Below the pieces are notes generated by a model. It had not been told where the DNA came from. It did no database searches and was given only the letters and a program-made list of their open reading frames with translations. Below, one piece after another: positions 5,690 to 38,272 of a DNA stretch of 64,000 bases; within the stretch, counting starts at the first letter, position 1, and each line of letters opens with the position of its first letter. The DNA is from Eubacteriales bacterium (GTDB taxonomy: Bacteria > Bacillota > Clostridia > Oscillospirales > CAG-272), in NCBI GenBank assembly GCA_045658965.1, contig JAZOVZ010000086.1, positions 43,175 to 107,174 on the forward strand, in the 5' to 3' direction. Both the position numbers and the translations under genes were made by a program.

Positions 5690-5713
5690 AAAATATTCGA
5701 TGAAAAATTGAAA

Positions 5714-7229: not shown

Positions 7230-7338
7230 ATTATCCCTCCAAACGCACAAATCTCACATATTTTATCACAAATACTCCGTATTGTCTATAGGTTCACAAA
7301 ATATTTACATTTATTGTTAAATAATTATCACACTTTAC

Positions 7339-7367
7339 TTGACTAAAGCGATTCTTTGTAGTATAAT
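7339..7367 (+). promoter_or_regulatory. SigA-type promoter of the his operon
   Basis: TTGACT (7339-7344), a 17-nt spacer, then TATAAT (7362-7367). It lies about 35 nt upstream of the AAGGAGG RBS of hisZ. Confidence 0.7.
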
Positions 7368-7402
7368 CTTGGTATCCTTTTATTATTAAGGAGGATTTTC
7401 GA

Positions 7403-8467: not shown

Positions 8468-9081
8468 TCAGAATTGCATTACCCAAGGGCAGACTTGGCG
8501 ATAAGGTGCTTGCGCAGTTTGAAGCTGCGGGGTACGCCTGCCCCGAGATCCATACGCCCTCCAGAAAGCTTGTTTTTTCCACAGACGAGGTCTCTTACTT
8601 CTTCGTCAAGCCCTCAGACGTGCCGATCTACGTAGAACGCGGCGTGGCTGACATTGGCGTTGCAGGCAGCGATATTCTCATGGAATACCAGCCCGACGTC
8701 TATTCCCTGCTCGATCTCGGCATAGGCAAATGCCGCATTTGCGTGGCAGCCAAGGCAGAATTTGAGGATGATTACGGTCGCCCCTTACGCGTGGCAACCA
8801 AGTTTACCCACGTTGCATCCCAATATTACAATTCGCTTGGCAGAACCATTGATATCATCAAGCTCAACGGCTCGATCGAGCTTGCCCCCATTCTCGGGCT
8901 CTCGGACGTGATCGTTGACATTGTGGAAACAGGCACGACGCTCAAAGAAAACGGGCTTGTGGTCAAGCAGGATATTGCCTCGGTCAGCGCAAGGCTGATT
9001 GCCAACAAGACCTCTTACAAATTTAACAGCGCGCAGATCTCCGAGCTGCAGCAAAAGCTTCAGGAGCAAAGAAAGGACTAA
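8464..9081 (+). CDS. hisG: ATP phosphoribosyltransferase, short form
   Basis: MIRIALPKGRL...VATKF...ETGTTLKENGL is a typical short HisG of 205 aa. Confidence 0.9.
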   Translation: MIRIALPKGRLGDKVLAQFEAAGYACPEIHTPSRKLVFSTDEVSYFFVKPSDVPIYVERGVADIGVAGSDILMEYQPDVYSLLDLGIGKCRICVAAKAEFEDDYGRPLRVATKFTHVASQYYNSLGRTIDIIKLNGSIELAPILGLSDVIVDIVETGTTLKENGLVVKQDIASVSARLIANKTSYKFNSAQISELQQKLQEQRKD

Positions 9082-9086
9082 ATCCC

Positions 9087-11412: not shown

Positions 11413-11426
11413 AAGGAGAACTTTTC

Positions 11427-12014
11427 ATGAGAACCTGTAAAATTAACAGAAAAACCAATGAAACCGATATCGCACTTACCTTAAATCTTGACGGCACGGG
11501 CAGCTGTGAGATCACGACCGATTGCGGCTTTCTTACGCACATGCTGACCTTATTTGCAAGACACGGCGGTTTTGATCTGACCGTGAACTGCAAGGGTGAC
11601 AGTGAGGTGGACTTCCACCACACCGCCGAGGATATCGGCATTTGCCTTGGACAGGCGTTTGCAAAAGCGCTGGGTGATTGCAAGGGCATTTACAGATACG
11701 GTGATATCATTCTGCCCATGGACGAAGCACTCATACTTTGTGCGGTGGACGTTTCGGGTCGCCCCTATCTTGGCTACAGCGTGGAAATACCCGCTGCACG
11801 CGTGGGTGATTTTGACACCGAGCTTGCCGAGGAATTCTGGTTGGCGTTCGTGCGTCACGCAGGCATGACGCTGCACTTCAGAATGCTTGCGGGCAAAAAC
11901 TCGCACCACATCATTGAAGCAGAATTCAAGGCAGCTGCGCGCGTGCTTGCCAAGGCTTGCGCTGTTGACGCTGCGAAAGCAGACCAAATTCCTTCCACCA
12001 AGGGTGTATTATGA
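11427..12014 (+). CDS. hisB: Imidazoleglycerol-phosphate dehydratase
   Basis: RKTNETDI...DGTG, HHTAEDIGI and NSHHIIEAEFKA are the IGPD signature blocks. An RBS GAAAGGAG is present. Confidence 0.92.
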   Translation: MRTCKINRKTNETDIALTLNLDGTGSCEITTDCGFLTHMLTLFARHGGFDLTVNCKGDSEVDFHHTAEDIGICLGQAFAKALGDCKGIYRYGDIILPMDEALILCAVDVSGRPYLGYSVEIPAARVGDFDTELAEEFWLAFVRHAGMTLHFRMLAGKNSHHIIEAEFKAAARVLAKACAVDAAKADQIPSTKGVL

Positions 12015-22799: not shown

Positions 22800-22959
22800 A
22801 ATGTCCCTTTCCGGAAATTCCCTCATTTTGACAGAAAAAATTCCTCATATAATTCGCAAATCCCATTGCTTTTTCCATGATTATATTGTACAATATATAT
22901 AAAGCTCTGTCAAGGGCATGGGCAAAACTATTTTTATTTTTTACAAACAGAGGTGCTAC

Positions 22960-24354
22960 ATGAAGCAATTTATGGACCGCGACTTTTTGCTTGAAAATGA
23001 TACTGCAAAAGCTCTCTATCACGACTACGCTGCGCAGCTTCCCTTAGTAGATTACCATTGTCACATTGATCCGCGTGAGATCTATGAAAACAGACAGTTT
23101 GAAAATCTGACGCAGATCTGGCTGGGGGGCGATCATTACAAGTGGCGCATCATGCGCTCCAACGGTGTTCCCGAAGAATACATCACGGGAAATGCTCCCG
23201 ATCGCGAAAAATTTCAAAAATTCGCAGAGACGCTTCCTCGCTGCGTGGGCAACCCCATGTATCATTGGTGTCACCTTGAACTGAAAACCTATTTCGGTTA
23301 CGAGGGCGTACTCAACGGCAAGACCGCAGAAGAGGTCTGGAATCTTTGCAACGAAAAACTCAAGACCATGCGCGCGAGAGATTTTGTGGCGCAGAGCAAG
23401 GTTGCCATGATCGGTACGACGGATGACCCCTGCAGCGATCTCGGCTATCACGCGCTGATTGCAAACGAAGGACTTGACTGCAAGGTTTGCCCCAGCTTCC
23501 GTCCCGACCCCGCGCTCAATATGCACAAGCCGGGCTTTGCCGCTTATATCGAAAAGCTTGGCAAGGCAGCAGGGACCCGGATCAAAACCGTTGCAGACGT
23601 CAAGGCTGCGCTTTCTGCAAGAATGGATCACTTTGCCGCACACGGCTGCCGTGCAAGTGACCATGGGCTTGATTATATCATGTACCGCGAAGCAAGTGAG
23701 GACGAGATCAACGCGTCCCTGACTACTGCCCTTGCAGGTGGTGCGGTTACCAAGGAACAGACCGAAGCGTATCAGACCGCGCTGCTGCTCTTCTGCGGGC
23801 GCGAATATGCACGCCGCGGTTGGGTCATGCAGCTGCACTTTTCCTGCATGCGTAATCCCAACAGCCGCAGATTTGCCGAGCTTGGCCCCGATACCGGCTT
23901 TGACTGCATTGCCGTCACCGATAGCTGCGCACCGCTGTACAGACTGATGGACGCATGGGATAAGGACGGGCAGCTGCCCCGCACCGTGCTCTACAGCCTC
24001 AACCCCGCCGATAACCAATGGATCGACACGCTGCTGGGTGCTTTCCAGGATAGCTCGATCCCCGGTAAGGTGCAGCACGGCAGCGCATGGTGGTTCAACG
24101 ATAACAAGGTGGGCATGCAGGATCAGCTGACCAGCCTTGCCAACCTTGGCATTCTTGGCAACTTTATCGGTATGCTGACCGACTCGCGCTCGTTCCTGAG
24201 CTACACAAGACACGAATACTTCCGCCGCATTCTCTGCAACCTGATCGGCACGTGGATCGAAAACGGCGAGTACCCCTGCGATATTCCCGCGGTAGGTGCA
24301 CTTGTACAGGATATCTGCTACTACAACGCAGCCCGCTATTTTGGACTTGAATAA
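22960..24354 (+). CDS. uxaC: Glucuronate isomerase
   Basis: MKQFMDRDFLLENDTAKALYHDYAAQLPLVDYHCHIDPREI is a textbook UxaC N-terminus. I moved the start to ATG-22960 (RBS AGAGGTG). Confidence 0.92.
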   Translation: MKQFMDRDFLLENDTAKALYHDYAAQLPLVDYHCHIDPREIYENRQFENLTQIWLGGDHYKWRIMRSNGVPEEYITGNAPDREKFQKFAETLPRCVGNPMYHWCHLELKTYFGYEGVLNGKTAEEVWNLCNEKLKTMRARDFVAQSKVAMIGTTDDPCSDLGYHALIANEGLDCKVCPSFRPDPALNMHKPGFAAYIEKLGKAAGTRIKTVADVKAALSARMDHFAAHGCRASDHGLDYIMYREASEDEINASLTTALAGGAVTKEQTEAYQTALLLFCGREYARRGWVMQLHFSCMRNPNSRRFAELGPDTGFDCIAVTDSCAPLYRLMDAWDKDGQLPRTVLYSLNPADNQWIDTLLGAFQDSSIPGKVQHGSAWWFNDNKVGMQDQLTSLANLGILGNFIGMLTDSRSFLSYTRHEYFRRILCNLIGTWIENGEYPCDIPAVGALVQDICYYNAARYFGLE

Positions 24355-24367
24355 AGGAGAAAGCGCT

Positions 24368-25450
24368 ATGCAAATGACGTTTCGCTGGTACGGCGAGGGC
24401 AACGATAAGATCAGCCTTGCCGATATCAAACAAATTCCCGGTGTGACGGGGATCGTTTGGGCATTGCACGATAAAATGCCCGGTGAAGTTTGGCAGCCCG
24501 AAGAAATTGCCAAGGTCAAAGAGCAGCTTGACGCTTACGGCTTCAACATGGACGTGGTGGAATCGGTCAACGTGCACGACGATATCAAGATCGGTCTTCC
24601 CTCCCGCGATGCTTATATTGAAAACTACAAGCAGACCATTCGCAACTTAGCTCCCTTTGGCGTAAAGGTCATCTGCTACAATTTCATGCCTATCTTTGAC
24701 TGGACCAGATCCAATCTGTTCCACCCCGTTGGCGACGGCTCGACCGCGCTGTTCTATGAAAAGAACATGATCCAGGACGACTACAATGCCATGGCGAAGT
24801 ACATTCTGGATTTCACCGAGAAATACAACATGTCCTTCCCCGGCTGGGAGCCCGAGCGTATGGCAAAGCTGGACCAGCTGTTCAAGGCGTACGCCGACGT
24901 AGACCACGAAAAGCTGTGGGCAAACCTCAAGTATTTCCTGGAAGCACTTATGCCCGTATGCGAGGAGACCGGCATCAAAATGGCGATCCACATGGATGAC
25001 CCGCCTTGGGATATTTTCGGTCTGCCCAGACTTCTGGTGGACGAGCCCTCGATCGACCGTTTCCTTTCTATGGTCGATCACCCCTGCAACTGCCTGACGC
25101 TTTGCTCGGGCAGCTTGAATGCCAACCCCGATACCAACGTAGCAGACATTGTGCGCAAGCATTGCGACCGCATTGCGTTTGCGCATATCCGTAACGTCAA
25201 GCACTTCGAAAACGGCGACTTCTCCGAGGCTTCCCACCGCGACTGCGACGGTGACACGGGCATTCTTGACATTCTCAAGGCTTACCACGATTGCGGCTTT
25301 GACGGCTATATCCGACCCGACCACGGCAGACACCTGTGGGGCGAGGGTCCCGGTACGGTTCGCCCCGGTTACGGACTTTACGACCGCGCACTTGGCATTA
25401 TGTACATGCTGGGCGTTTGGGACATGCTTGATAAATTGGAGGAAAAATAA
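24368..25450 (+). CDS. uxuA: Mannonate dehydratase
   Basis: MQMTFRWYGEGNDKISLADIKQIPGVTGIV is typical of UxuA. I moved the start to ATG-24368, which follows AAGGAGAA. Confidence 0.9.
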   Translation: MQMTFRWYGEGNDKISLADIKQIPGVTGIVWALHDKMPGEVWQPEEIAKVKEQLDAYGFNMDVVESVNVHDDIKIGLPSRDAYIENYKQTIRNLAPFGVKVICYNFMPIFDWTRSNLFHPVGDGSTALFYEKNMIQDDYNAMAKYILDFTEKYNMSFPGWEPERMAKLDQLFKAYADVDHEKLWANLKYFLEALMPVCEETGIKMAIHMDDPPWDIFGLPRLLVDEPSIDRFLSMVDHPCNCLTLCSGSLNANPDTNVADIVRKHCDRIAFAHIRNVKHFENGDFSEASHRDCDGDTGILDILKAYHDCGFDGYIRPDHGRHLWGEGPGTVRPGYGLYDRALGIMYMLGVWDMLDKLEEK

Positions 25451-25451
25451 T

Positions 25452-26294
25452 ATGATCAACTTACCTTTGAAAATAGACTATACCGATAAGGTTGTCGTGA
25501 TTACCGGTGCCGGCGGACTGATCTGCGGCGCAATGGCACGTGCATTTGCACAGTGCGGTGCCAAGGTGGCAGCTCTTGACTTAAACCTTGACGCTGTGAC
25601 CAAGCTTGCCGACGAGCTGACTGCAGAAGGCTTTATCTGTAAGGGATACAAGGCAAACGTGCTTGATCCCGCAGCTCTGGAAGAGGTACACGCGCAGGTG
25701 CTTGCCGATCTTGGCAAGTGCGACGTACTGGTCAACGGTGCGGGCGGCAATAACCCCAGAGCAACCACCTCTAACGAATACCATCACGAGGCAACTCCCG
25801 AGGGCAAGTCCTTCTTTGATCTGGATGCAGACGGCGTTGACTTCGTATTCAAGCTCAACTTCCAGGGCACGCTGCTGCCGACGCAGGCGTTTGCCAAGGA
25901 TATGCTGGAGACGGGCGGCTGCATTCTTAACATTTCCTCGATGAACGCATATACCCCCTTGACCAAGATCCCCGCTTACTCTGCAGCAAAGGCAGGTATT
26001 TCCAACTTCACGCAATGGCTGGCAACACACTTTGCAGGCACCAACATCCGCTGCAACGCCATCGCTCCCGGTTTCCTTGTTTCCGCGCAGAACTACTCCC
26101 TGCTCTTTCATGAGGACGGCACTCCCACCGCAAGAAGCGCAAAGATCCTGAACGGTACGCCCTGCCACAGATACGTACAGGCTGAGGAGCTGCTTGGTGC
26201 AACGCTGTTCCTTTGCGACGATCGCAGCGCATCCGCCATTACCGGTGTCGTGCTTCCCATTGACTGCGGTTTTGCCGCTTATTCGGGCGTTTAA
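25452..26294 (+). CDS. uxuB: SDR-family D-mannonate (fructuronate) oxidoreductase
   Basis: I set the start at ATG-25452 (MINLPLKIDYTDKVVVITGAGGLICG). It has the SDR motifs TGxxGxxG, NISS and YSAAK. Its position between uxuA and kdgA matches the Firmicute SDR-type UxuB (YjmF-like). Confidence 0.75.
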   Translation: MINLPLKIDYTDKVVVITGAGGLICGAMARAFAQCGAKVAALDLNLDAVTKLADELTAEGFICKGYKANVLDPAALEEVHAQVLADLGKCDVLVNGAGGNNPRATTSNEYHHEATPEGKSFFDLDADGVDFVFKLNFQGTLLPTQAFAKDMLETGGCILNISSMNAYTPLTKIPAYSAAKAGISNFTQWLATHFAGTNIRCNAIAPGFLVSAQNYSLLFHEDGTPTARSAKILNGTPCHRYVQAEELLGATLFLCDDRSASAITGVVLPIDCGFAAYSGV

Positions 26295-26306
26295 GGAGGC
26301 TACATC

Positions 26307-26933
26307 ATGACCGTACTTGAAAGATTTTCCCGCGTGGGCATCGTCCCCGTTGTGGTCATTGACAAGGTTGAGGATGCCGTTCCCACCGCAAAGGCTTTAC
26401 TTGCGGGCGGCGTGGACGTCATGGAAATCACATTCCGCACCGCTGCTGCTCCCGAGGCGATCAAGGCTGTTGCTGACGAGTGCCCCGACATGCTGGTTGG
26501 CGCAGGCACCATTCTCAACGTAGAGCAATGTAAACAGGCGATCGAAATGGGCGCGAAATTCATCGTTTCCCCCGGTTTTGACCGCGACGTGGTTGCTTAC
26601 TGCATCGAAAATGACATCGCCACCACGCCCGGCTGCGTCACTCCCACCGAGATCACGGCTGCTCTTAACATGGGGCTTAAGGTCATCAAGTTCTTCCCTG
26701 CCAACATTTACGGCGGCTTGAACGCAATGAAGAACCTCTCCGCACCCTTCGTAGGCGTCAAATTCCTGCCCACGGGCGGCATTAGCACCGCAAACGTGCG
26801 CGAATATATCGATGCACCCTTTATTCAGGCAGTGGGCGGCTCTTGGATCTGCCCCCGTGCCGATATTGCGGCAGGCAACTTCGATAAGATCACCGCGCTC
26901 TGCAAGGAAGCGCGCAGCGCGGCATTTGATTGA
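26307..26933 (+). CDS. kdgA: 2-dehydro-3-deoxyphosphogluconate (KDPG) aldolase
   Basis: VPVVVIDKVEDAVPTAKALLAGGVDVMEITFRT...KFFPA...GG is the Eda/KdgA family pattern. 208 aa. Confidence 0.88.
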   Translation: MTVLERFSRVGIVPVVVIDKVEDAVPTAKALLAGGVDVMEITFRTAAAPEAIKAVADECPDMLVGAGTILNVEQCKQAIEMGAKFIVSPGFDRDVVAYCIENDIATTPGCVTPTEITAALNMGLKVIKFFPANIYGGLNAMKNLSAPFVGVKFLPTGGISTANVREYIDAPFIQAVGGSWICPRADIAAGNFDKITALCKEARSAAFD

Positions 26934-26945
26934 TAGGAGGCTATT

Positions 26946-27974
26946 ATGGGAAAGATTATTACGTTTGGCGAGCTGATGCTCAGACTTCAGCCCTTTAACT
27001 ATGAAAGATTCGTACAGGCAAGTCAGGTAGAATTCTCCTTTGGCGGCGGTGAAGCCAACGTGGCTGTTTCTCTTGCCAACTACGGTATGGACGCTGCTTT
27101 TGTGACCAAGCTCCCCGCACACGCGATCGGTCAGGCTGCGGTCAATTCCCTGCGCAGATATGGGGTAGACACCTCTATGATCGTGCGCGGTGGCGACCGC
27201 GTGGGCATCTACTACAACGAAAAGGGTGCTTCGCAACGCGGTTCTGTCTGCATTTATGACCGTGCAAACTCGGCAATCGCAAAGGCTGACGCTGCGGATT
27301 TTGATTGGGACACCATTTTTGACGGTGCGGATTGGTTCCACTTTACCGGAATTACCCCTGCACTTGGCGAAAACGTGGCTGCGATTTGTCTTGATGCCTG
27401 CAAGGCTGCAAAGGCACGCGGCATCAAGATCTCTTGCGACCTTAATTACCGCGGCAAGCTTTGGACGCGCGCACAGGCAAGAGAGACCATGACCAAGCTT
27501 TGCGAGTACGTAGACGTTTGCATTTCCAACGAAGAAGATGCAAAGGACGTTTTCGGCATTGAGGCTGAGGCGACCGACATTTACGGCGGCACGCTCAACC
27601 ACGAGGGCTACAAGTCGGTAGCAAAGCAGCTGGCTGACAAGTTCGGATTTGAGATGGTTGCCATCACGTTGCGTGAGAGCCACAGCGCAAGCGCGAACGG
27701 CTGGAGCGCAATGCTCTACAATGTGGCAGAAGATGCGTACTGCTTCTCCAAGAAGTACGAGCTGACCATCATTGACCGCGTTGGCGGCGGTGACTCGTTC
27801 GGCGGCGGCTTGATCTACGCAGTGCTTAACGGCAAGACCACGCAGCAGGCTGTTGAATTTGCAGTTGCTGCATCCGCACTCAAGCACACTATCGGCGGTG
27901 ACTACAACATGGTCACGGTTGCCGAGGTAGAAAAGCTGGCAGGCGGCGACGGCTCGGGCAGAATCCAGAGATAA
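26946..27974 (+). CDS. kdgK: 2-dehydro-3-deoxygluconokinase (PfkB family)
   Basis: MGKIITFGELMLRLQP...GGGEANVAVSLANYG...DRVGGGDSFGGGLIY are the PfkB motifs. It completes the KDG pathway. Confidence 0.88.
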   Translation: MGKIITFGELMLRLQPFNYERFVQASQVEFSFGGGEANVAVSLANYGMDAAFVTKLPAHAIGQAAVNSLRRYGVDTSMIVRGGDRVGIYYNEKGASQRGSVCIYDRANSAIAKADAADFDWDTIFDGADWFHFTGITPALGENVAAICLDACKAAKARGIKISCDLNYRGKLWTRAQARETMTKLCEYVDVCISNEEDAKDVFGIEAEATDIYGGTLNHEGYKSVAKQLADKFGFEMVAITLRESHSASANGWSAMLYNVAEDAYCFSKKYELTIIDRVGGGDSFGGGLIYAVLNGKTTQQAVEFAVAASALKHTIGGDYNMVTVAEVEKLAGGDGSGRIQR

Positions 27975-28023: not shown

Positions 28024-29478
28024 TTATTCAATCAGAACTTTACCATCTGTACAAATGACTTGAATTTGGTGATCGGTACAAAGAACATCTCCGCTCCCTA
28101 CATGCATAATCCATTCGGCTTTTGTACCATTATAATTTATGGTACGAAGCGTACTCTTGGAAAACGCCCAACTTCCAATAATCACGTATGGGTATGGTAT
28201 ATTAAGAATCTCAATAGTGCAGCCATAAAATGCTTTATCCTGAATTGTTTTAGTGTTTTTCGAAAGCTCTACTACATTCAAATCTTCACAACCCGAAAAC
28301 GCCTCCCAACTGATTGTCTCCAAACTAACGGGAATGATGATTTTGATCAGGCCCGATCCGTAGAACGCACCAGATCCTAAAGTTAACAAACTATCCGGCA
28401 GAGTAATTTTTTGCAGTGCTGAACAGTTTCTAAATGCGTAATCCCCAATCGTTAACACGTTTCCATTGAACGTAACCTGCTTTAGATACGCGTTAGACGA
28501 ACACATTTCCTCGGGGATATGGAGCACGTTTGATGGAATTACAATTTCTTTTAGCTTTGCATTTTTAAACGCAGCTTTTCCAATAGCGACCAAACTTTCC
28601 GGCAAATTAATGGTCTCAAGATTTGGACAGGCAAACGCATATGATCCTATTTCATTCAATCTTTCAGGCAATATCACCTCTTGCAGTCCCGTGTGATTTT
28701 CAAATGCATGATCCGCTATACTTTTGACGGGTATGCCCTCTATTTCTTCCGGAATAATCACGCGATATCGATAATCGGATTCACTCTGTGATTCATTCGT
28801 GAATCCTAAAACCACAAATAAGTCTCCACGCTCGTTCAATTGATACTGTACATCCTGATCATCCACACGAATCACACCGGGTTCTAACGGAGGCAAAGTT
28901 TCTGTTTCCGATTCAAATTCAGTATCCGTTTCCGTTTGGGTATCCGTCTCACCTATGATTGCATCAACCTCATCCTTATGATCGATATAATACTCATAAA
29001 GTCTTTCCAGGAAATCTCCAAGATCCTGCATGCTCTCGCCTACCAATCCATCGCTTTGCATGGATTGCAGCTTGTTGATGACCGAATCATCCGTACCTGC
29101 GCCGAGAGCGTTGAAGAGCTCTTCGGTAAACTTCCATTCGATCCAATTCAGCTGCAACAGACTTTGCGCAGGCGGTGTGGGTGCATCGGGATCGTCCGGA
29201 TCTGCGGGCTGCTGATCCAACGGGAACAGCACGTTCTCGATGACTTGGCTGCCCCATTCTTGCACGGGCTTGCTGCCAAGCACGATAAAAGACAGCGGCA
29301 GAGAGACAAGCAGCATGGAGAACACCAAAGCAAGGCAGGCTGCGCTGATCAGGATGCCGCGGTTTCTCTTTCGGCGTCTTGATTTGAGAATAGACAGCTT
29401 GGTTTCATACTGCACGTACTCAATGATATACTTTTGGTCAATGGCGGAAATCGCATCAATCATCACGTTTTTGTTCAT
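28024..29478 (-). CDS. Membrane-anchored sigma partner with BspA-type leucine-rich-repeat ectodomain, cassette 2
   Basis: Its ATG overlaps the sigma stop (ATGA 29475-29478). Order of parts: N-terminal IDAISAIDQKYIIEYV, a basic stretch, a TM helix (GILISAACLALVFSMLLVSLPLSFIVL), a conserved juxtamembrane module, an acidic T/E linker, then repeats of about 23 aa of the type IPxxVxxIGxxAFxxCxxLxxI (LRR_5/BspA-like). Confidence 0.7.
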   Translation of the reverse strand: MNKNVMIDAISAIDQKYIIEYVQYETKLSILKSRRRKRNRGILISAACLALVFSMLLVSLPLSFIVLGSKPVQEWGSQVIENVLFPLDQQPADPDDPDAPTPPAQSLLQLNWIEWKFTEELFNALGAGTDDSVINKLQSMQSDGLVGESMQDLGDFLERLYEYYIDHKDEVDAIIGETDTQTETDTEFESETETLPPLEPGVIRVDDQDVQYQLNERGDLFVVLGFTNESQSESDYRYRVIIPEEIEGIPVKSIADHAFENHTGLQEVILPERLNEIGSYAFACPNLETINLPESLVAIGKAAFKNAKLKEIVIPSNVLHIPEEMCSSNAYLKQVTFNGNVLTIGDYAFRNCSALQKITLPDSLLTLGSGAFYGSGLIKIIIPVSLETISWEAFSGCEDLNVVELSKNTKTIQDKAFYGCTIEILNIPYPYVIIGSWAFSKSTLRTINYNGTKAEWIMHVGSGDVLCTDHQIQVICTDGKVLIE

Positions 29479-30050
29479 AGCCCGATTCCCTCCTCTGCCA
29501 GCTTTTGTTTGAGGGATTGCTTGATGTACGCGATCTGCTTGGAGACCTTGGAGCGACTCACGCCCATTTCGCTTGCAATGTCATCGATCGACTTGCCGAA
29601 ATAGTATCTGCCAAGGAAAATATACCGTTGATCCTTGTCAAGGCTTGCAATATACGCCTCAATGACCATAGCCAGCATGCGTACATCATCGGTTTCGCGC
29701 GCATCTGCCAGCACGTCTTCCAGATCTGAGAGCGATACGGCTTGGCTCATCGCGGCTCTTTTCTGCGCCTTTTGCCTGCGACCGACCATCAAGGACTGGT
29801 TGCGGATAATGGCAGCCAAAAAGGCTTTGAGCAAATACGGACGCTCGGGCGGAATGGTGTTCCAGGCAGACAGGTAGGTGTCATTCAGGCATTCCTCACA
29901 GTCTTGCATGTCTTTTAAAATGTTATATGCCACCTTGAGCAAATACGCTCTGTATTTGTCATCGGTGTGTTTGATAGCATTCTCATTGCGCGCCCAATAT
30001 AGTGCAATGATCTCTTCGTCACTCAGAATGCGGACGTAATTCGTTTCCAT
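29475..30050 (-). CDS. RNA polymerase sigma-70 family (ECF-like) factor, cassette 2
   Basis: ALYWARNENAIKHTDDKYRAYLLKVAYNILKDMQDCEECLNDTYLSAWNTIPPERP plus a C-terminal HTH (IDDIASEMGVSRSKVSKQIAYIKQSLKQKL). Confidence 0.85.
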   Translation of the reverse strand: METNYVRILSDEEIIALYWARNENAIKHTDDKYRAYLLKVAYNILKDMQDCEECLNDTYLSAWNTIPPERPYLLKAFLAAIIRNQSLMVGRRQKAQKRAAMSQAVSLSDLEDVLADARETDDVRMLAMVIEAYIASLDKDQRYIFLGRYYFGKSIDDIASEMGVSRSKVSKQIAYIKQSLKQKLAEEGIGL

Positions 30051-30141
30051 ATCGTTCTCCTTTCAGCATCCTTCACCCTTATAGATGCGTTTTTTTAGAA
30101 AAAGTGTACGGTTTTGCTAAAATTTTTTTATTTTTTTAAAA

Positions 30142-30165
30142 TCGGTGGGAGCAAGCCCCCACCGA
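30142..30165 (-). terminator. Rho-independent terminator of the 3xTM-protein/fucosidase operon
   Basis: TCGGTGGG (30142-30149) pairs with CCCACCGA (30158-30165). On the minus strand it is followed by TTTTAAAAAAATAAAAAAA and lies 9 nt after the fucosidase stop. Confidence 0.7.
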
Positions 30166-30173
30166 AAGTAATG

Positions 30174-31142
30174 TTATTCCTCTCTCTTGCCAACCTCGCG
30201 CAGAATTTCAAGCGCGGGCACGGGGATACGTCCTAAGTGGTCGGGGCCTACGTTGAGCAGGTAGTTGACGCCGCGGTCGTTGAGGTGTTTCTTGATGCGA
30301 ATGACCTCGTCGGCATTCTTCCAGTTATCGTCGAAATACTTAAAGCCCCAGGTATCGTTGAGCGTGGTGGGAGATTCCACCAGAATATCCTCCATATACT
30401 CATTGGGGATGACATTGTCGCCCATGGATACGTAGTCGCCAAGTCCGTTACCAATGCGGGAATTCAGCAGGCATTCGGGCTGCAGCTCCTTGACAAGATC
30501 GCGCAATTCCTTGGATTGCTCGGGCGTGATCTGAAAAGGCGTATCACACCAAAGCAGGCAAATATCGCCGTACTTGGTCAAAATTTCGCGGATCTGCGGC
30601 AGGATCTTTGCGCGGAAGCATTGCTCGTAATTCTTTTGATCGTCGTTCGGGAAATCCCAGTTGTTGGTCCAATGCGTGTCGTCAATATTGAGGTGCGAGG
30701 GGTGATAACCGCCACCGTTGGGCTCGTGCCAATCAAGCTCCTGCGAATAATACAGACCCAGCTTCAGACCGTGCTTTTTGCAAGCCGCAGCGATCTCACC
30801 GATCACGTCTCTGCCAAAGGGCGTTGCGTCCACCACGTTGTAGTTGTCGTACTCGGATTTGAACATGCAAAAACCGTCGTGGTGCTTACTGGTCACGACC
30901 ATGTAATTCATGCCCGCATCCTTGGCAAGCTTGACCCATTCCTCGGCGTCAAAATAAATGGGATTGAACGCCTTTGCAAGCTGCGAGTATTCCTCGTTCG
31001 GAATACGGAAATACGCCTGCGCCCATTCTGCGATCATGCCGATGCGCTTTCCGCGGTGCTCCCCTGCCAGCAGCGAATACAGACCCCAGTGGATCATCAA
31101 ACCGAATTTAGCCTCTTTTTTGAACCATTCCTTATTGGTCAT
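30174..31142 (-). CDS. Alpha-L-fucosidase, GH29 catalytic domain, no signal peptide
   Basis: FGLMIHWGLYSLLA...EWVKLAKDAGMNYMVVTSKHHDGFCMFKS...YN are hallmark GH29 blocks. It is 322 aa and starts directly with MTNKEWFKKE, with no hydrophobic leader. Confidence 0.85.
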   Translation of the reverse strand: MTNKEWFKKEAKFGLMIHWGLYSLLAGEHRGKRIGMIAEWAQAYFRIPNEEYSQLAKAFNPIYFDAEEWVKLAKDAGMNYMVVTSKHHDGFCMFKSEYDNYNVVDATPFGRDVIGEIAAACKKHGLKLGLYYSQELDWHEPNGGGYHPSHLNIDDTHWTNNWDFPNDDQKNYEQCFRAKILPQIREILTKYGDICLLWCDTPFQITPEQSKELRDLVKELQPECLLNSRIGNGLGDYVSMGDNVIPNEYMEDILVESPTTLNDTWGFKYFDDNWKNADEVIRIKKHLNDRGVNYLLNVGPDHLGRIPVPALEILREVGKREE

Positions 31143-31146
31143 TGCC

Positions 31147-31731
31147 TTACTCTCCTATCTTACCGTTATATGTAAAGAATTTGGTGTTATATGCATATGC
31201 GACCTCTGCGTCACCCAAGCGTCTGACTATATAAAACTTGTCACCGCGCAACGAGGTGTTCTCCAGCCCCTTGGGCGAGATGTACATTTCCTTACTCCAA
31301 GCGTACAGCGTTTCGATCTCGGGCACACGCCATTGCGAGTTATAGAATTTGAACACGGTCACGCTCTTGGTATAGTGCATCCTGTTCCCGCCTCTGGTAT
31401 AGCTACGTTGCACGTGCGGCTCATACACGGTTTCCTGATCGATATGCGAAAGCGTGTCGATCTCTACGACAAAATCACAATTATGCTCGACCTCAAACAC
31501 AACATCATTGTCGGCTTGATTTTGCTTGAAATATAAGTAAATCGGCACGATAGCAACAAGACCGATCAGCACACCAAGCAACACGTGCACGTAAATGCCC
31601 GCCGCCAAAGCCGCAGCAGCAATCGGCATTACCCAAACCAGTGTTTTGTTATCGTTATTTTTCGCTTTTTTGACTTCATTGCCCAGCACGTCACGGCGAA
31701 TCGCCTCGTCTGTCAATATCTCTTTGGTCAT
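31147..31731 (-). CDS. Hypothetical 2-TM membrane protein, paralogue 1 of 3
   Basis: A charged N-terminus, 2 TM helices (VWVMPIAAAALAAGIYVHVLLGVLIGLVAIVPIYLYF), then a roughly 110-aa soluble domain ending GDKFYIVRRL...YNTKFFTY. The SD for the fucosidase gene (GGAGAG) lies in its last codons. Confidence 0.7.
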   Translation of the reverse strand: MTKEILTDEAIRRDVLGNEVKKAKNNDNKTLVWVMPIAAAALAAGIYVHVLLGVLIGLVAIVPIYLYFKQNQADNDVVFEVEHNCDFVVEIDTLSHIDQETVYEPHVQRSYTRGGNRMHYTKSVTVFKFYNSQWRVPEIETLYAWSKEMYISPKGLENTSLRGDKFYIVRRLGDAEVAYAYNTKFFTYNGKIGE

Positions 31732-31737
31732 ATCGTT

Positions 31738-32304
31738 TTACTCCTTATATACAAAGAACTTTTCGCTGTACAGATCCACGACCGTTTGCGGATCGTTTTT
31801 CATGGTGACAACGATATATGTATCACCGTATTCGGACATCTGCAGCCAGACCGATAATCTTGACGGGCAGCTTGAGCCGTTTCGCTTATCATGGTAAATG
31901 CGATATTCCTTGCCGCCCTCAAAGGAAACGACATCATAACCGTAATCCCTCAAGGAATGCCACGGGTCAAACTCCACGAAGCTTAAAAACTTGGCGCGCT
32001 CAATGACGACCTGCGAGCCGTCCTCGTTTTTGACCGCGCGGATCAGCGTAACCGTTTTGTATATCAGATATGCGCATACCGCTGCAAGCGCCAGCATAAC
32101 AACGCCGCAAAACGCCATAAAACCCACCGCTTGATCTGCGGGCTCTTTTGCAAGCTCTTTGAACAGCCGGGATGCAAAGATCGCAAACACGATTGCCGTG
32201 ATCACGCCTGCCGCACCGTATATCGGGAAATAGAAATACGCGCCGCGGTTGAATTTTTTAAGCAGCATTTCCCTTGTAATAACTTCTCTTCTGTCTTCTT
32301 GCAC
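31738..32304 (-). CDS. Hypothetical 2-TM membrane protein, paralogue 2 of 3
   Basis: I reassigned the start to GTG-32304, which is preceded by GGAGGG-ATAAC and lies 1 nt after the stop of the upstream paralogue. The ORF-track TTG-32337 would overlap by 32 nt. It has 2 TM helices and a C-terminal domain ending GDTYIVVTM...YSEKFFVY. Confidence 0.65.
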   Translation of the reverse strand: MQEDRREVITREMLLKKFNRGAYFYFPIYGAAGVITAIVFAIFASRLFKELAKEPADQAVGFMAFCGVVMLALAAVCAYLIYKTVTLIRAVKNEDGSQVVIERAKFLSFVEFDPWHSLRDYGYDVVSFEGGKEYRIYHDKRNGSSCPSRLSVWLQMSEYGDTYIVVTMKNDPQTVVDLYSEKFFVYKE

Positions 32305-32305
32305 G

Positions 32306-32890
32306 TTATCCCTCCGTTCCTTGTGCCATATCGTCAACGTATTCGTACATTGCCTCGGGATAAATCATCTGCAGCTCCCAGCTCTTTTTCTGATAGATCA
32401 CCAAAATAAAAGACTGCCCCACGCCGAACTTGTCGCGTGCGCGGTTTTTCTCGGACTCTGTCCACAGCCCCTCTTTCATGGTAAAGGTGTTTCCGCGCGC
32501 AAATTCAAACACGTCGTATTCGATTTCTTTTAACGTGTGCGTGCGGTGGCTGTAATAGGTTTCCACGCACTTGCGCACTTCGGTCAGCGTGTCAATCACC
32601 ACGGTGACGTCGCCTTCCATAATGCTCTGCTTCTTTTGGTGCATTTCCCCAACCCGCCTGAAGCCTCCATAGAGCAAAACAGGTATTGCGGCACAAGGTA
32701 TAATGCCAAAAACAAAGCCACCCAATCTGTTGACGTCGCTCCACATCCAGTTTGCCACGAAAAGCATGACCAAAAAAGGGACGCACGCACCGAACGAGAT
32801 AGCGATCATCATACCGAATTTGTCGGTCGCGCGCTCAGTCATGGTACGCAATATATCGGATTTTTTGAGTATTTTTCTCTGCTCTTCCAT
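32306..32890 (-). CDS. Hypothetical 2-TM membrane protein, paralogue 3 of 3
   Basis: I set the start at ATG-32890 (MEEQRKILKK), preceded by AAGGAGAAGCGC. The ORF-track start at 32965 lies upstream of the mapped promoter. It has 2 TM helices and a C-terminal domain ending GQSFILVIY...YPEAMYEY. Confidence 0.7.
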   Translation of the reverse strand: MEEQRKILKKSDILRTMTERATDKFGMMIAISFGACVPFLVMLFVANWMWSDVNRLGGFVFGIIPCAAIPVLLYGGFRRVGEMHQKKQSIMEGDVTVVIDTLTEVRKCVETYYSHRTHTLKEIEYDVFEFARGNTFTMKEGLWTESEKNRARDKFGVGQSFILVIYQKKSWELQMIYPEAMYEYVDDMAQGTEG

Positions 32891-32923
32891 GCGCTTCTCC
32901 TTGCTTTGGCAATCATTATACAC

Positions 32924-32952
32924 ATTATACCAAATACACACACAAATGTCAA
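32924..32952 (-). promoter_or_regulatory. SigA-type promoter of the 3xTM-protein/fucosidase operon
   Basis: On the minus strand: TTGACA (32952-32947), a 17-nt spacer, then TATAAT (32929-32924). Confidence 0.75.
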
Positions 32953-32973
32953 CAAATCGCAACAAAAAGAGAT

Positions 32974-32999
32974 GCCCCGACGGGAAATCCCGTCGGGGC
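32974..32999 (-). terminator. Rho-independent terminator of sigma/LRR cassette 3
   Basis: GCCCCGACGGG (32974-32984) pairs with CCCGTCGGGGC (32989-32999). On the minus strand it is followed by ATCTCTTTTTGTTG. Confidence 0.8.
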
Positions 33000-33012
33000 T
33001 TGCGTATGTCGT

Positions 33013-35343
33013 TTAAGCAATTGTTTCACCGTCCGTACAAACAACGGTGATATTAATATAATTAAAACCTACAAAATTGATTTGCCGCCACTCTTCCAAC
33101 GTGCCTTCGTAGTAGATATGCGTCATAGAATCGCAGCCTTTGAATGCGGATTTTCCAATCGTTTTCACACTTACGGGTATCGTAATCGATTCTAACTGCT
33201 TTGCATCGTAAAACGCAAAGGTTTCGATCTTTTCGATCCCTGCGGGCACAACGTAATCCACTACACCGGAATAACTGAAGGTACTCTCGGGAATATTCAC
33301 GATGCGTTCGGGGAATACGACCTCTTGAATATTGTCGCAATATTGAAAGAGTCGCTTACCGATCGTGTCCACGGAGTCGGGAAATGCAATATAGGTCAAG
33401 GCGTTGCAATACTCAAATGCATTATTACCGATCTTTCTCAAACTACTGTTCTCTGCAAAATGCACATCGGTCAGCGAAACGCATCTGTTAAACGCGTCAT
33501 CTCCGATGCTGACTACGTTTGCTCCAATATTCACGGTCTTCAAGCTCCGACAAAGGAAAAACGCACTTTTGCCGATCGAATTGATCGAGCTGCTTAACTC
33601 AAGCTGCTCCAAAGAGGTACAGCCGTAGAATGCGCTTCCGCCGATATTTTTCACGCCTTTTTCAAGCACAACCGTTTTGAGCGCAGTACAGTCCATAAAT
33701 GCCGAGGTTGGAATGGATTCAAGGCTTCCGGGAATCGTCAGCTCCACAAGAGACGTGCATTCCTTGAAGGCATCGACCTCCATGACCTTCAGATCGTTTG
33801 GCAGCACCAGCTTCTGTAATTTCATGCATCCGGAAAATGCATGCTCGCGGATGGTTCGGTATTCCACAGTTGCGGGATCGCCATCCTCAAACACAACCTC
33901 CTCAAGATACGAGCACTCGTCAAACGTATACTTTTCAATAGTGGCAACACCCTTGGGGATGTGCACACGCTTCAGCGATGAGCATCTATGGAAGGCGCGT
34001 TCACCAAGCGTAACCAGTCCGCCTGGAAGATCAGCGCTGACCAATGCTTTGCAATCCTTGAAGGCATCGTTTTCAATGGTGTGTACAGAATCGGGCAGAT
34101 CTATGCTGCGCAAAGAAAGACATCCATTAAACGCGCTTTCTCTGATATGCTCAAGCGTGTCGGGAAGGCTGACCGAGTAAAGCACATTACACGCATTGAA
34201 CATATTGGCATTCAGAATCTTGATCGGTGCAAGGATTTCCACTTGGACGACTCCGGACGCTGCAAAGATTTCTCCGTCAAGCTCAGTACAGCTTTCGGGG
34301 ATGGTAAACTCTGTCAGTTCCCTGCAATTTTTGAATACTCTGACACCGATCGACTGCAAATTAGGTGAGCAGTATACTTCTTTTAGGAAAATGCACCCCA
34401 TAAACAATTCGTGCTCCAGCGCAATGACGCTGTCGGGGATATGAATACTCTTAAGTGATGAGCAATTCACAAAGGCTTGCTGCCCGATGGTTTGCAGGCT
34501 TTCGGGCAACGTAATATTAGACAATTTTGTGCAATCGCGGAAGGCTTCCCTACCGATCGCGCTCACACCATCGGGAATATAGATCTCTTCAATATCGGTC
34601 TTTCGAAAAGCCTCCTCCCAAATCTCGGTAACGGGCTTTCCGTCGTAGGTAACGGGAATGATGATGACCTTATCCGTGCAATCTCCTATACCTGATACGG
34701 CATAGCTTTCACCGCCCGACAGTTCCTTGTACTTAAGCCCTTTGCTTCCATCCACATCATAACTCGGGTCGGGCTCGGGCTCGGGCTCGGGCTCGGTTTC
34801 GGATTCCTGCTGGCTTTCGGTCTCCTTTTCATCAGGCGGTAAATCCGTACCGTCTTTATGCTTCAGGTAATACTCATAAAGCTTGGCAAGGAACTCTCCA
34901 AGGCTTTGCATGCTATCGCCTGCAAGCGTACCGCCTTGCATGGATTGCATCTTATCAATGACAGAATCCTCGGTGCCCGCTCCTAAAGCATTAAAGAATT
35001 CCTCTGCGAATTTCCATTCGACCCAATTGATCAGCAGGTCCTCGGGGTTGATATTCTCCCCGTCGTCAGTTTCCTTATCAAGCGGGAACAGGATATTCTC
35101 CACGCCCTCGGATACGGCTGAGTTGATCTTTTCCGCATTGAAGACGTAAATAAGCGGTACAGACGTGATAAGCAGCGCGAAAATCAATATCATTGCAACG
35201 GCAGCGGCAAGCAAAGTCACCAGATATTTTTTGGTTTTGCCTGTCCTGCGGCGGCTGCGCAATCTTTGATCCATAAGCACGTAGGACTCCAGCAGTTCGG
35301 GATCGATCATGCCTACGGCATCAAACAACATGGCTTTTTTCAT
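33013..35343 (-). CDS. Membrane-anchored sigma partner with long BspA-type LRR ectodomain, cassette 3
   Basis: It overlaps the sigma stop as ATGA (35340-35343). Order of parts: N-terminal FDAVGMIDPELLESYV, a basic stretch, a TM helix (YLVTLLAAAVAMILIFALLITSVPLIYVF), a juxtamembrane module shared with cassette 2 (ENILFPLD...INWVEWKFAEEFFNALGAGTEDSVIDKMQSMQ...LYEYYLKHKD), an acidic EPEPEPEP linker, then more than 20 LRR_5-like repeats (ITLPESLQTIGQQAFVNCSSLKSIHIPDSV...). Confidence 0.75.
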   Translation of the reverse strand: MKKAMLFDAVGMIDPELLESYVLMDQRLRSRRRTGKTKKYLVTLLAAAVAMILIFALLITSVPLIYVFNAEKINSAVSEGVENILFPLDKETDDGENINPEDLLINWVEWKFAEEFFNALGAGTEDSVIDKMQSMQGGTLAGDSMQSLGEFLAKLYEYYLKHKDGTDLPPDEKETESQQESETEPEPEPEPDPSYDVDGSKGLKYKELSGGESYAVSGIGDCTDKVIIIPVTYDGKPVTEIWEEAFRKTDIEEIYIPDGVSAIGREAFRDCTKLSNITLPESLQTIGQQAFVNCSSLKSIHIPDSVIALEHELFMGCIFLKEVYCSPNLQSIGVRVFKNCRELTEFTIPESCTELDGEIFAASGVVQVEILAPIKILNANMFNACNVLYSVSLPDTLEHIRESAFNGCLSLRSIDLPDSVHTIENDAFKDCKALVSADLPGGLVTLGERAFHRCSSLKRVHIPKGVATIEKYTFDECSYLEEVVFEDGDPATVEYRTIREHAFSGCMKLQKLVLPNDLKVMEVDAFKECTSLVELTIPGSLESIPTSAFMDCTALKTVVLEKGVKNIGGSAFYGCTSLEQLELSSSINSIGKSAFFLCRSLKTVNIGANVVSIGDDAFNRCVSLTDVHFAENSSLRKIGNNAFEYCNALTYIAFPDSVDTIGKRLFQYCDNIQEVVFPERIVNIPESTFSYSGVVDYVVPAGIEKIETFAFYDAKQLESITIPVSVKTIGKSAFKGCDSMTHIYYEGTLEEWRQINFVGFNYINITVVCTDGETIA

Positions 35344-35924
35344 ACCGTGTAGCCCTCCTTTTCAAGTGCACTTTTCAAGGAAGTCCTGATGTAGGCAACG
35401 TCTGCATTGACCGTAGAGCGTGCAACGCCAAGCACCTGCGCGATCTCGTCAAGCGGTTGCGCATCGTAATAACGGGCAAAGAATACGTATCTCTTTCGTT
35501 CGTCCAGCGTGCGCAGCCATGCGCTGATCACCTCGGCAAGCTGCGCTGCATCACTTTCGGTGTAATCATCGCCATCCTCAAGGGCATATCCCTGCAGATC
35601 CTCAAAGGATGCAACAAAGCATGGGGGTATGCTCTTTTTGCGGTGCTTTTGTCGGTAGCGGTCAATTGCCTGATTACGCATGATGCTGCCAACAAAGGCT
35701 TGCAGCACGCGCGGTCGCTTGGGCGGAATGGCATTCCATGTGTCTAAATAGGTGTTGTTAAGGCATTCCTCACTATCCTGCATATCCTGCAGGACGTTAT
35801 ATGCCGTCCTGAGCAGATAATTGCGATATTTTTGATCCGTATGCTTGATCGCGGCTTCATCCCGCGCCCAATACAGCTCAATGATCGCTTCATCGCTGAG
35901 CATATAGCTGTTTTCTTGCTTCAT
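35340..35924 (-). CDS. RNA polymerase sigma-70 family (ECF-like) factor, cassette 3
   Basis: ELYWARDEAAIKHTDQKYRNYLLRTAYNVLQDMQDSEECLNNTYLDTWNAIPPKRP plus an HTH (LDEIAQVLGVARSTVNADVAYIRTSLKSALEKE). An RBS AAAGGAG is present. Confidence 0.85.
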   Translation of the reverse strand: MKQENSYMLSDEAIIELYWARDEAAIKHTDQKYRNYLLRTAYNVLQDMQDSEECLNNTYLDTWNAIPPKRPRVLQAFVGSIMRNQAIDRYRQKHRKKSIPPCFVASFEDLQGYALEDGDDYTESDAAQLAEVISAWLRTLDERKRYVFFARYYDAQPLDEIAQVLGVARSTVNADVAYIRTSLKSALEKEGYTV

Positions 35925-37461: not shown

Positions 37462-38196
37462 TTACTGTCCAAATCCGCCCATAAGGCCGCCAAGCTGTCC
37501 GTATCCGGGAATCATTTCTTCCAGAATGCCGTCCATATATCCGTCATTCCCCTTCATGGCGTTATATACCGAGTCGTAAATGGCATCGTATATCGCGCCG
37601 CCCACAACCTCATTAATGCGTTCCACAACCGAGTTTGCCACAGCCTCTGCGGTTTTATCTGCGATGTAGTCGCGCAAATCGTCCTCATTGTCCTCGGGCA
37701 GCTGCTCCTCGGTGGTCTCCTCATCCGTCGGCTGTTCGGTGGTTTGCTCGGTCTTTTCAAAATTATCCTCGATCCAAGCCTTGATCAGCCCTTTGATAAA
37801 CTCAGAGGTCGTGCTGCTGCCTATGTAAAGATCCAACACCTCGGTGATGATCTCCTTATAGTCATAGTCACCGTTGCCAAGTCCGCCAAGTGAACCAAGC
37901 AGATCCTCTACTATGCCGCCGTACTCGGTGGTCACTTCTTCCTCGGTGGTAGGCTCTTCGGTCGTTTGCTCGAACTTACCAATTGCTTCTAAGATCGACT
38001 CTGCCATCTCATTCTTGAGCTCCTCGATCTCTTGCTCGGAAAGCTCGGGTTCGGTCTCTATTTCAGTCTCTCTTTCGGTCTCGCGTTCTGTTTCCTTGGG
38101 GTCGTCTTTATTATCCTTGTCACCGCATGCGGCAAGCACGGATACAGTCATCAGCAACACAAGCAGCAATGCAACAAGTCTCAAATACTGTTTCAT
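37462..38196 (-). CDS. Acidic lipoprotein of unknown function
   Basis: I set the start at ATG-38196 ([26 protein letters not shown]), which gives a signal peptide plus lipobox. The mature protein is very acidic ([25 protein letters not shown]...) and has a Gly-rich tail ([14 protein letters not shown]). Its stop lies 23 nt upstream of asnS. Confidence 0.7.
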
Positions 38197-38243
38197 ATGT
38201 ATGCTGTTCCTTTCTCTTATCAGGTATTTGTAAAACAACTATC

Positions 38244-38272
38244 ATTATAACATTATTTATCCGCAATGTCAA
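38244..38272 (-). promoter_or_regulatory. SigA-type promoter of lipoprotein-asnS unit
   Basis: On the minus strand: TTGACA (38272-38267), a 17-nt spacer, then TATAAT (38249-38244). Confidence 0.75.

Follow-up and report, generated by a model that had tools for sequence, protein, structure and literature searches.

A 64,000-nucleotide stretch of contig JAZOVZ010000086.1 (positions 43,175 to 107,174; Eubacteriales bacterium, assembly GCA_045658965.1; hereafter the window) carries on its minus strand four adjacent genes. Three of them, which we call A, B and C, code for small membrane proteins, and the fourth codes for an α-L-fucosidase of glycoside hydrolase family 29 (GH29). The four genes are packed tightly into a single operon that is driven constitutively by a consensus SigA promoter. 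A, B and C represent a tandem expansion, specific to their lineage, within an undescribed family of chromosomally encoded proteins. The explanation that we favor, with moderate confidence, is that of a clade-specific operon joining two unrelated kinds of genes, one kind coding for members of a membrane-anchored cytoplasmic binding or scaffold family and the other for a GH29 enzyme similar to AlfC of Lacticaseibacillus casei. An earlier annotation of the window, made from its letters alone (the first-pass annotation), had proposed either a hetero-oligomeric membrane complex that imports, tethers or senses fucosylated glycans or an immunity-like membrane system. A dedicated fucose-glycan machine appears unlikely to us: distant members of the family occur without GH29 and GH29 relatives occur without the family, which contradicts a family-wide link to fucose or to carbohydrate-active enzymes (CAZymes).

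Organization of the operon

The genes and signals of the operon, in the order of transcription and together with the terminator that precedes it, are as follows.

32999–32974, minus strand: strong intrinsic terminator of the upstream leucine-rich repeat (LRR) protein gene, 11-bp stem with 10 GC pairs, 4-nt loop and T-run
32952–32924, minus strand: SigA-type promoter TTGACA-17-(TG)TATAAT, 12 of 12 consensus positions matched, TG before the −10 element
32306–32890, minus strand: gene A, 194 aa, ATG start
31738–32304, minus strand: gene B, 188 aa, GTG start
31147–31731, minus strand: gene C, 194 aa
30174–31142, minus strand: GH29 gene, 322 aa, last gene of the operon
30137–30165 (hairpin 30142–30165), minus strand: probable operon terminator, 10-bp GC-rich hairpin followed by a short U tract

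The intergenic gaps are 1 nt between A and B (TAA-C-GTG), 6 nt between B and C (TAA-AACGAT-ATG) and 4 nt between C and GH29 (TAA-GGCA-ATG). With these gaps and the complete promoter match, the four-gene operon and its near-consensus promoter, both called in the first-pass annotation, are confirmed. Also as described there, the Shine-Dalgarno sequences of B (GGAGGG), C (AAGGAG) and GH29 (GGAGAG) lie within the final codons of the preceding gene; that of gene A (AAGGAG) is found 6 nt 5′ of the ATG. The GTG start of gene B is supported by two related loci from other genomes or metagenomes (such loci carry L numbers below), L009 and L010, since both have an ATG at the homologous codon. Open reading frames (ORFs) of A and B extended to TTG codons were rejected as false starts, as they begin upstream of the promoter or within gene A. 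A perfect TTGACA-17-TATAAT sequence occurs twice in the window, compared to 0.00 occurrences expected from 100 shuffles. The second one (38244–38272, minus strand) is located directly 5′ of an unannotated ORF (37462–38238, 258 aa).

The terminator at 32999–32974 insulates the operon from upstream read-through, and its hairpin is kept in L001 and L008–L011. The downstream hairpin at 30142–30165 has a calculated folding energy of −18.4 kcal/mol (z −3.3) and is followed by UUUU only, which places it below the T-run rule of the terminator scan. It is plausible, though imperfect, as the terminator of the operon. Of the two bounding terminators proposed earlier, the upstream one stands as described and the downstream one is less convincing than had been implied. 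An Rfam search of the whole window revealed no RNA family. All four genes are under purifying selection, with dN/dS values of 0.10–0.20 for A, 0.11–0.23 for B, 0.06–0.21 for C and 0.03–0.09 for GH29, and are therefore real genes and not decaying copies.

Gene C is the canonical member of an undescribed family

Hydropathy analysis revealed two hydrophobic segments in A (residues 24–49 and 55–78) and in B and a single 41-residue hairpin stretch in C. In the AlphaFold2 model of C (full-length predicted local distance difference test score, pLDDT, 75.5) helices cover residues 8–47 and 50–83. Each of the three proteins consists of a two-helix membrane hairpin followed by a β domain of ~110 aa, in agreement with the common architecture noticed in the first-pass annotation. 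The N-termini of A, B and C contain 6–7 Lys/Arg residues, compared to 0–3 in the inter-helix loops; the linker after the second transmembrane helix is rich in Lys/Arg across the family alignment, and the external loops of the hairpin are only 2–15 residues long. The distribution of charges and the presence of only two helices suggest an N-in/C-in topology with the β domain in the cytoplasm. A topology of this kind, with loops so short, would exclude the extracellular glycan sensing that had been considered for these proteins.

Comparison of A, B and C with Pfam, NCBIfam, PADLOC and PHROGs gave nothing above noise, the sub-threshold matches being limited to hydrophobic segments. A Pfam search with 68 diverse family members revealed no shared family, and the best match of the family profile to PDB sequences had an E-value of 1.3. 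The earlier statement that no family can be assigned thus holds for Pfam, NCBIfam, PADLOC, PHROGs and PDB sequences, and also for Foldseek, where no match was significant (see below). C had 32 homologous clusters in word-indexed searches, A had 15 and B had 7, and every one of these clusters came from uncultured Clostridia. Many more were recovered when the C alignment was used in an exhaustive profile search: 521 representative clusters (50% identity) at E≤1e-3, 249 of them at E≤1e-10, and nearly all of the 521 are 180–210 aa long and matched end to end. The few named members all come from uncultured Clostridia and are annotated as “hypothetical protein”. Gene C is the canonical member of this undescribed family of ~190-aa proteins with a two-helix membrane part and a β domain. 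If this description stands, the family is a sizeable one that Pfam and NCBIfam do not contain, and its more than 500 clusters, clear signature and confidently modeled domain make it a candidate for curation as a new domain family. An undescribed family is not in itself surprising in uncultured gut Clostridia, and at present the result is of practical use for annotation and not as a new mechanism.

Among 68 family sequences D14, Y143, W145, Y181 and F186 are invariant and F129, W134, S146, G155 and G163 nearly so. In the proposed topology all of these residues would be cytoplasmic, as would the N-terminal K-E-x-L-T..D motif that is present in C and conserved in the family. None of the 40 most conserved positions in the same 68 sequences falls in the membrane helices. 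The family signature comprises D14, E100, E104-P105, Y143-x-W145-S146, N158-T-S160, G163-D, Y181 and F186; its polar and aromatic residues are spread along the β domain from β1 through the β3-helix loop to the start of β4. Because no transmembrane residue is conserved and every invariant residue is predicted to be cytoplasmic, the hairpin would serve as an anchor only and not as a pore.

The hairpin topology resembles that of class II holins (two transmembrane domains, N-in/C-in), and hairpins of C and B give very weak matches to phrog_1129 (E 0.01) and Phage_holin_3_6 (E 0.17), respectively. Since the fucosidase has no signal peptide, one could imagine that the membrane proteins make lesions that release it to the cell surface. 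However, the holin matches are compositional, below any threshold and restricted to the hydrophobic segments; at ~190 aa, the proteins are 2–3 times as large as holins, and it is a folded domain on the cytoplasmic side that is conserved in them. There is no endolysin or phage context, and a perfect constitutive promoter is implausible for a lethal pore-former. In L. casei, moreover, AlfC substrates are imported by a permease before defucosylation (PMC6960285). Holin-like export strikes us as barely credible.

Gene A and, probably, gene B are diverged copies

Pairwise BLAST comparisons among A, B and C were not significant. In hhalign comparisons the C family aligned with the A family over 156 columns (89% probability, E 2.4e-6) and with the B family over the C-terminal 60 columns only (34% probability, E 4e-4). 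A broad family hidden Markov model (HMM) detected C with an E-value of 1.4e-63, A with 1e-7 to 2e-8 and B with 6.5e-4 to 3.6e-3, and the A-family HMM detected a distant canonical member (L037) with 9e-7.

Alignment to the family HMM revealed that C carries every signature residue. A and B keep the hydrophobic core motif only (F129, G163-D/Q-x-F/Y166, Y181 and F/Y186), with D14 and W145 also retained in A, and are devoid of the polar signature E100, E104-P105, Y143-x-W145-S146 and N158-T-S160. The same holds for the extra copies in L004, L010, L019, L023 and L033, where the core is kept and the polar residues are lost. The similar β-like motif pointed out earlier at the C-termini of A, B and C is real: it reads G-D/Q-x-F/Y ... 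Y-x-x-K/A-x-F/Y and falls on those core positions that are best conserved in the family (G163, F166, Y181 and F186). Judged by these comparisons, A appears securely placed as a divergent, degenerate paralogue of C, and B is probably a paralogue too, the most divergent of the three. The three-way paralogy of the first-pass annotation is thereby kept for A and C and, less firmly, for B, while a direct relationship between A and B (hhalign E 0.13) is unsupported.

Predicted fold of the β domain

Residues 78–194 of C were modeled from a 70-sequence alignment with pLDDT of 87.8 and a predicted template modeling (TM) score of 0.78. The model consists of a long β1, β2, β3, a short helix, β4 and β5. 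Because this order of elements is that of oligonucleotide/oligosaccharide-binding (OB) folds, the predicted topology may be called OB-like. Foldseek comparison of the full-length and soluble-domain models with the PDB gave no match with an E-value below 0.08. For the soluble domain the best E-value was 0.08 and query-normalised TM scores were no more than 0.4; the resulting weak list is made up mostly of OB-fold proteins (SSB, PriB, LEF-3, CTC1 and MCM-N). The best match in BFVD had an E-value of 0.037, and the matching phage proteins are unnamed. No bPH, NfeD or PilZ structure was found among the 50 PDB matches listed.

In general plan the proteins resemble NfeD/YuaF (PF01957), in which a membrane anchor precedes a small five-stranded β-barrel-like domain with the order β1-β2-β3-helix-β4-β5. 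NfeD has a C-terminal domain with an OB-fold, which forms multimers and serves as a scaffold (PMC4208085). If A, B and C were remote analogues or homologues of NfeD/YuaF, they might organize microdomains of the SPFH/flotillin type, and the prevalence of OB-folds in the weak Foldseek list would fit. Yet PF01957 matched neither A, B and C at E≤1 nor any of the 68 family members at E≤0.01, and neither the operon nor the list of the 25 most recurrent neighbor families contains an SPFH/Band_7 gene. Unlike the C family, NfeD has, to our knowledge, no conserved cytoplasmic N-terminal motif with an invariant Asp. An NfeD-like scaffold is highly improbable.

The bPH_2 (PF03703) proteins YdbS and YdbT, often encoded by tandem paralogous genes of poorly defined function, likewise combine an N-terminal pair of membrane helices with a cytoplasmic all-β domain of ~100 aa. 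A bPH fold had been named as one to look for and was not found: PF03703 gave no sequence match, and the predicted domain ends in β strands, without the C-terminal capping helix of the PH-like sandwich. PilZ was considered because N158-T-S160-x-x-G163 resembles the PilZ motif D/NxSxxG; it was ruled out, as there is no RxxxR motif, no Pfam PilZ match and no listed PilZ structure.

The fucosidase is of the AlfC type

The product of the last gene matched Pfam PF01120 (Alpha_L_fucos) with an E-value of 3e-68 and 231 bits (cut-off 25.2), covering profile positions 27–338 of 345. Its closest solved structures are L. casei AlfC (PDB 6O18, 345 aa, E 2.7e-125) and Bifidobacterium asteroides TT1819 (PDB 8P1S, 342 aa). 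The HMMER alignment with AlfC has 58% identity over 266 aligned residues and extends over AlfC residues 4–332 of 345, so that the window enzyme is aligned as a single domain without a C-terminal β-sandwich. AlfC is a tetramer that lacks the C-terminal domain common to most fucosidases; D200 is its nucleophile and D242 its probable acid/base, and R229, N243, E274, W283, E39, H18, H87, H88, Y131, W40 and W198 also belong to its active site (PMC7718225). Of 14 AlfC active-site residues checked, 13 are identical in the window enzyme, namely both catalytic aspartates and the eleven other residues just listed (E274 and W283 as equivalents), and the only change is F237 to Y. Hydropathy analysis revealed no hydrophobic segment or N-terminus (maximal 19-residue value 0.84), consistent with the absence of a signal peptide stated in the first-pass annotation. 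The enzyme, which agrees with the AlfC subgroup in every feature that can be read from sequence, is predicted to be a cytoplasmic single-domain AlfC-type α-L-fucosidase.

The window enzyme differs from AlfC in length (322 compared to 345 aa), being shorter between AlfC residues ~247 and 271, and 58% identity does not settle whether it would share a specificity for the α-1,6 linkage (core fucose). A further difference lies in the operon partners. In the L. casei alfHC operon the major facilitator superfamily (MFS) permease AlfH imports 6′-fucosyl substrates, which AlfC then defucosylates; the partners in the window are three small membrane proteins and not AlfH or the alf-2 catabolic genes (PMC6960285). 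The result adds a ruminant-gut clade to the AlfC-type intracellular fucosidases, enzymes that are of interest for core-fucose removal and transfucosylation.

A constant unit with variable copy number and flanks

Scans of genomes and metagenomes yielded 26 loci with a relative of C (searched with a 20-sequence family alignment) and 48 loci with a GH29 relative. Nine loci were added by exact look-up of C relatives and seven, likewise, for members of the wider family. In what we call the close clade, which consists of metagenome-assembled genomes (MAGs) of ruminant-gut Clostridia, C is at least 63% identical and GH29 87–98% identical to the window proteins.

In the close clade the GH29 gene always follows C directly, with a spacing of 4–13 nt, and both flanks are rearranged. 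The simplest locus, L011, has one family gene in the order AsnS - C - GH29 - PfkB. Two family genes are found in L004, L012, L013 and L015 (ApbE - TMEM164 - extra copy - C - GH29), where either an Acyl_transf_3 gene or a sigma/LRR pair lies downstream of GH29. The window, L001, L008 and L009 have A-B-C-GH29 between two pairs of extracytoplasmic function (ECF) sigma factor and LRR genes. L025 also has three family genes, with B set apart from A-C-GH29 behind a 619-aa ORF, and L010 has four (A-B-B′-C-GH29). A consensus promoter, TTGACA-17/18-TATAAT, precedes the first family gene in L001, L008, L009, L010, L011, L004 and L013; among the related loci examined the sole exception is L025, with no promoter in the 56 nt read. 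Because copy number and flanks vary while the promoter, C and GH29 persist, the constant unit across five flank arrangements is promoter - (0–3 extra copies) - C - GH29. The first-pass annotation had taken the translational coupling to imply stoichiometric co-production of the three membrane proteins; as one to four family genes precede GH29, a fixed three-way complex is not required.

Two gene families beside this unit were recorded. A TMEM164-family (PF14808) gene lies directly 5′ of the family gene or genes in L004 (1833–2606), L012, L013, L015, L025 and L030 (4894–5664), the last being a distant locus with 39% identity to C. It was rejected as a conserved partner, since it is absent from the window and since in L004 and L013 a hairpin plus T-run (read by eye) and a consensus promoter intervene. 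The stop codon of GH29 overlaps by 4 nt the start of a membrane acyltransferase gene of the Acyl_transf_3 family (PF01757) in L004 (4834–6036) and L013 (7567–8769). The window lacks this gene and has a sigma/LRR pair in its place.

Between the window and L001 the C proteins are 74.5% and the GH29 proteins 98.1% identical. When window positions 28024–35924 were compared with L001 positions 3815–11703, synonymous divergence (dS) was 0.048 for the first LRR gene, 0.17 for the first sigma gene, 0.26 for B, 0.31 for GH29, 0.44 for the second sigma gene, 0.51 for A, 0.66 for the second LRR gene and 1.64 for C. Such a mosaic points to recombination or to replacement of alleles within the locus, especially in gene C and in the first LRR gene.

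A tandem array of variable copy number, in which A, B and C evolve faster than the neighboring enzyme and the dS of C exceeds the 0.05–0.66 of the seven other genes compared, could be expected of an immunity or protective membrane system. The tandem paralogues would then guard against a toxin or bacteriocin in the manner of bPH proteins of the YdbS/YdbT type, and GH29 would be an unrelated passenger; tandem PH-domain membrane proteins are indeed present in leaderless bacteriocin loci (PMC8657885). However, the dN/dS values of 0.06–0.23 indicate purifying and not diversifying selection, the conserved surface is predicted to be cytoplasmic, and neither sequence nor fold matches bPH. Neither the operon's own neighbors nor the recurrent neighbors of distant family members include a toxin, bacteriocin, ABC exporter or secretion gene. 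A known defence or immunity system was rejected: PADLOC returned 0 families, collections of phages, plasmids and viral contigs contained no family members, and the locus is flanked by chromosomal genes (AsnS, sigma/LRR pairs, uronate catabolism). The immunity-like system of the first-pass annotation, left without a defence match, toxin linkage or mobile copies, is very unlikely.

The family and the fucosidase occur apart

Distant family members, 30–39% identical to C, had no GH29 gene within about 6 kb in any of 21 non-redundant loci, which were drawn from the genome scan and from the look-ups. Their neighbors are heterogeneous: AP_endonuc_2 was found in five loci, PfkB and DUF4234 in three each, and the others are singletons. 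AP_endonuc_2 was tried as a partner and rejected, as it recurs in only 5 of the 21. Some distant members overlap the start of a soluble enzyme gene, for example that of an FGGY kinase in L035 and of a NUDIX hydrolase in L038. Two canonical copies may occur in one MAG (L022 and L027) or within 5 kb of each other (L019, L023).

Some large neighbors of distant members carry no annotation: those of 443 aa in L002 (13–1344), 498 aa in L029 (3993–5489), 611 aa in L032 (6283–8118) and 793 aa in L033 (8692–11073). Pfam and NCBIfam searches gave no match for any of the four; of these, the 443-aa protein alone was compared with the PDB, again with no match.

Conversely, AlfC-like GH29 genes 56–88% identical to that of the window have no family gene in their flanks. 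In L040, a metagenome contig, a GH29 gene with 88% identity (455–1423) lies 9 nt after what appears, read by eye, to be the C-terminus of an L-fucose isomerase (2–445), with no family gene. This arrangement supports a fucose-catabolic role for the GH29 clade that is independent of the membrane proteins. In L072 the gene that precedes an 83% identical relative is a 189-aa ORF in which an HD-type motif was likewise read by eye, and not a family gene. The synteny with GH29 that the first-pass annotation had asked about is therefore kept in the close clade, and the triplet has only ever been seen with GH29; the family itself occurs elsewhere without CAZyme linkage, an observation that the annotation had named, for the triplet, as one that would refute its proposal. 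We infer that the link between the family and GH29 does not reflect a family-wide functional coupling.

Possible roles of the membrane proteins

The proposal that A, B and C form a hetero-oligomeric complex for fucosylated glycans, either as an importer replacing AlfH or as a tether of the fucosidase at the site of import, draws on the tight coupling of four genes behind one promoter and on the C-GH29 adjacency kept in every arrangement of the close clade. AlfC-type enzymes act on imported substrates, with a permease as partner in L. casei (PMC6960285), and there is no permease gene in the window operon. Import is nevertheless poorly supported by proteins with two helices per subunit, external loops of a few residues and no conserved membrane residue, and an AlfH-type MFS permease was rejected, since each protein has two hydrophobic helices compared to ~12 transmembrane segments and no MFS match. 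The number of paralogues varies from one to four, the 21 distant loci have heterogeneous neighbors and no GH29, and GH29 relatives are found without the family, one of them after an apparent fucI. We judge a complex dedicated to import or tethering to be improbable, tethering less decidedly so than import.

In the explanation that we favor, two unrelated kinds of genes share a clade-specific operon. The hairpin would anchor the cytoplasmic domain of the family to the inner side of the membrane, where this domain would bind either a partner protein or a small ligand. C probably works as a homo-oligomer or as a hetero-oligomer with its degenerate paralogues A and B. GH29 would ride on the strong promoter of the family gene or genes, and the link between the two would be a clade-specific operon arrangement; at most, C might hold or organize the soluble GH29 at the membrane. 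The dependence of GH29 on the unit may be neutral, as a breakpoint inside the tightly packed operon would silence it. Alternatively, there could be a real but local functional tie, with C keeping GH29, as a soluble tetramer, at the membrane close to an importer.

Several points weigh against this explanation. The binding or scaffold role is our best guess from architecture and conservation, and no structural match assigns an activity to the family. The OB-like designation comes from the order of secondary structure elements and from Foldseek matches with E-values of at least 0.08 and TM scores of at most 0.4, and the homology of B to C is weak. C and GH29 stay together, 4–13 nt apart, where both flanks are rearranged, which could mean real functional coupling in the close clade, and the translational coupling in L035 and L038 would fit a more specific tethering of enzymes.

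A further reading is that the family consists of membrane-anchored cytoplasmic OB-like adaptors of a new class that bring particular soluble enzymes of sugar processing to the inner side of the membrane. Each copy would then be matched to its translationally coupled enzyme gene, be it an AlfC-like fucosidase, an FGGY kinase, a NUDIX hydrolase or a xylose-isomerase-like TIM-barrel enzyme, and A and B would be non-binding structural subunits of a hetero-oligomeric tether. We regard such adaptors as doubtful, with roughly the standing of a long shot. If membrane proteins of this kind did organize cytosolic glycan-processing enzymes at the membrane, the finding would matter more.

Surroundings of the operon in the window

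Four paralogous ECF-type sigma genes are present on the minus strand of the window (35340–35924, 29475–30050, 4932–5528 and 57089–57679; mutual phmmer E-values 2e-51 to 2e-57). Each overlaps the start of a downstream gene (33013–35343, 28024–29478, 3412–4935 and 56457–57092, respectively). Two of these downstream genes code for membrane-anchored BspA-type LRR proteins of 776 and 484 aa and, together with their sigma genes, flank the operon. The N-termini of both LRR proteins look anti-sigma-like in sequence. The two flanking sigma/LRR pairs look like insertions, because they are absent from the corresponding positions of L004 and L013.

A hexuronate-catabolism cluster on the opposite strand (22918–27974) adjoins the locus and codes for UxaC, UxuA, a short-chain dehydrogenase, a 2-keto-3-deoxy-6-phosphogluconate (KDPG)-type aldolase and a PfkB kinase. 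PfkB genes also lie near distant family members in 3 of 21 loci, and the cluster is syntenic downstream of the operon in L001 and L004.

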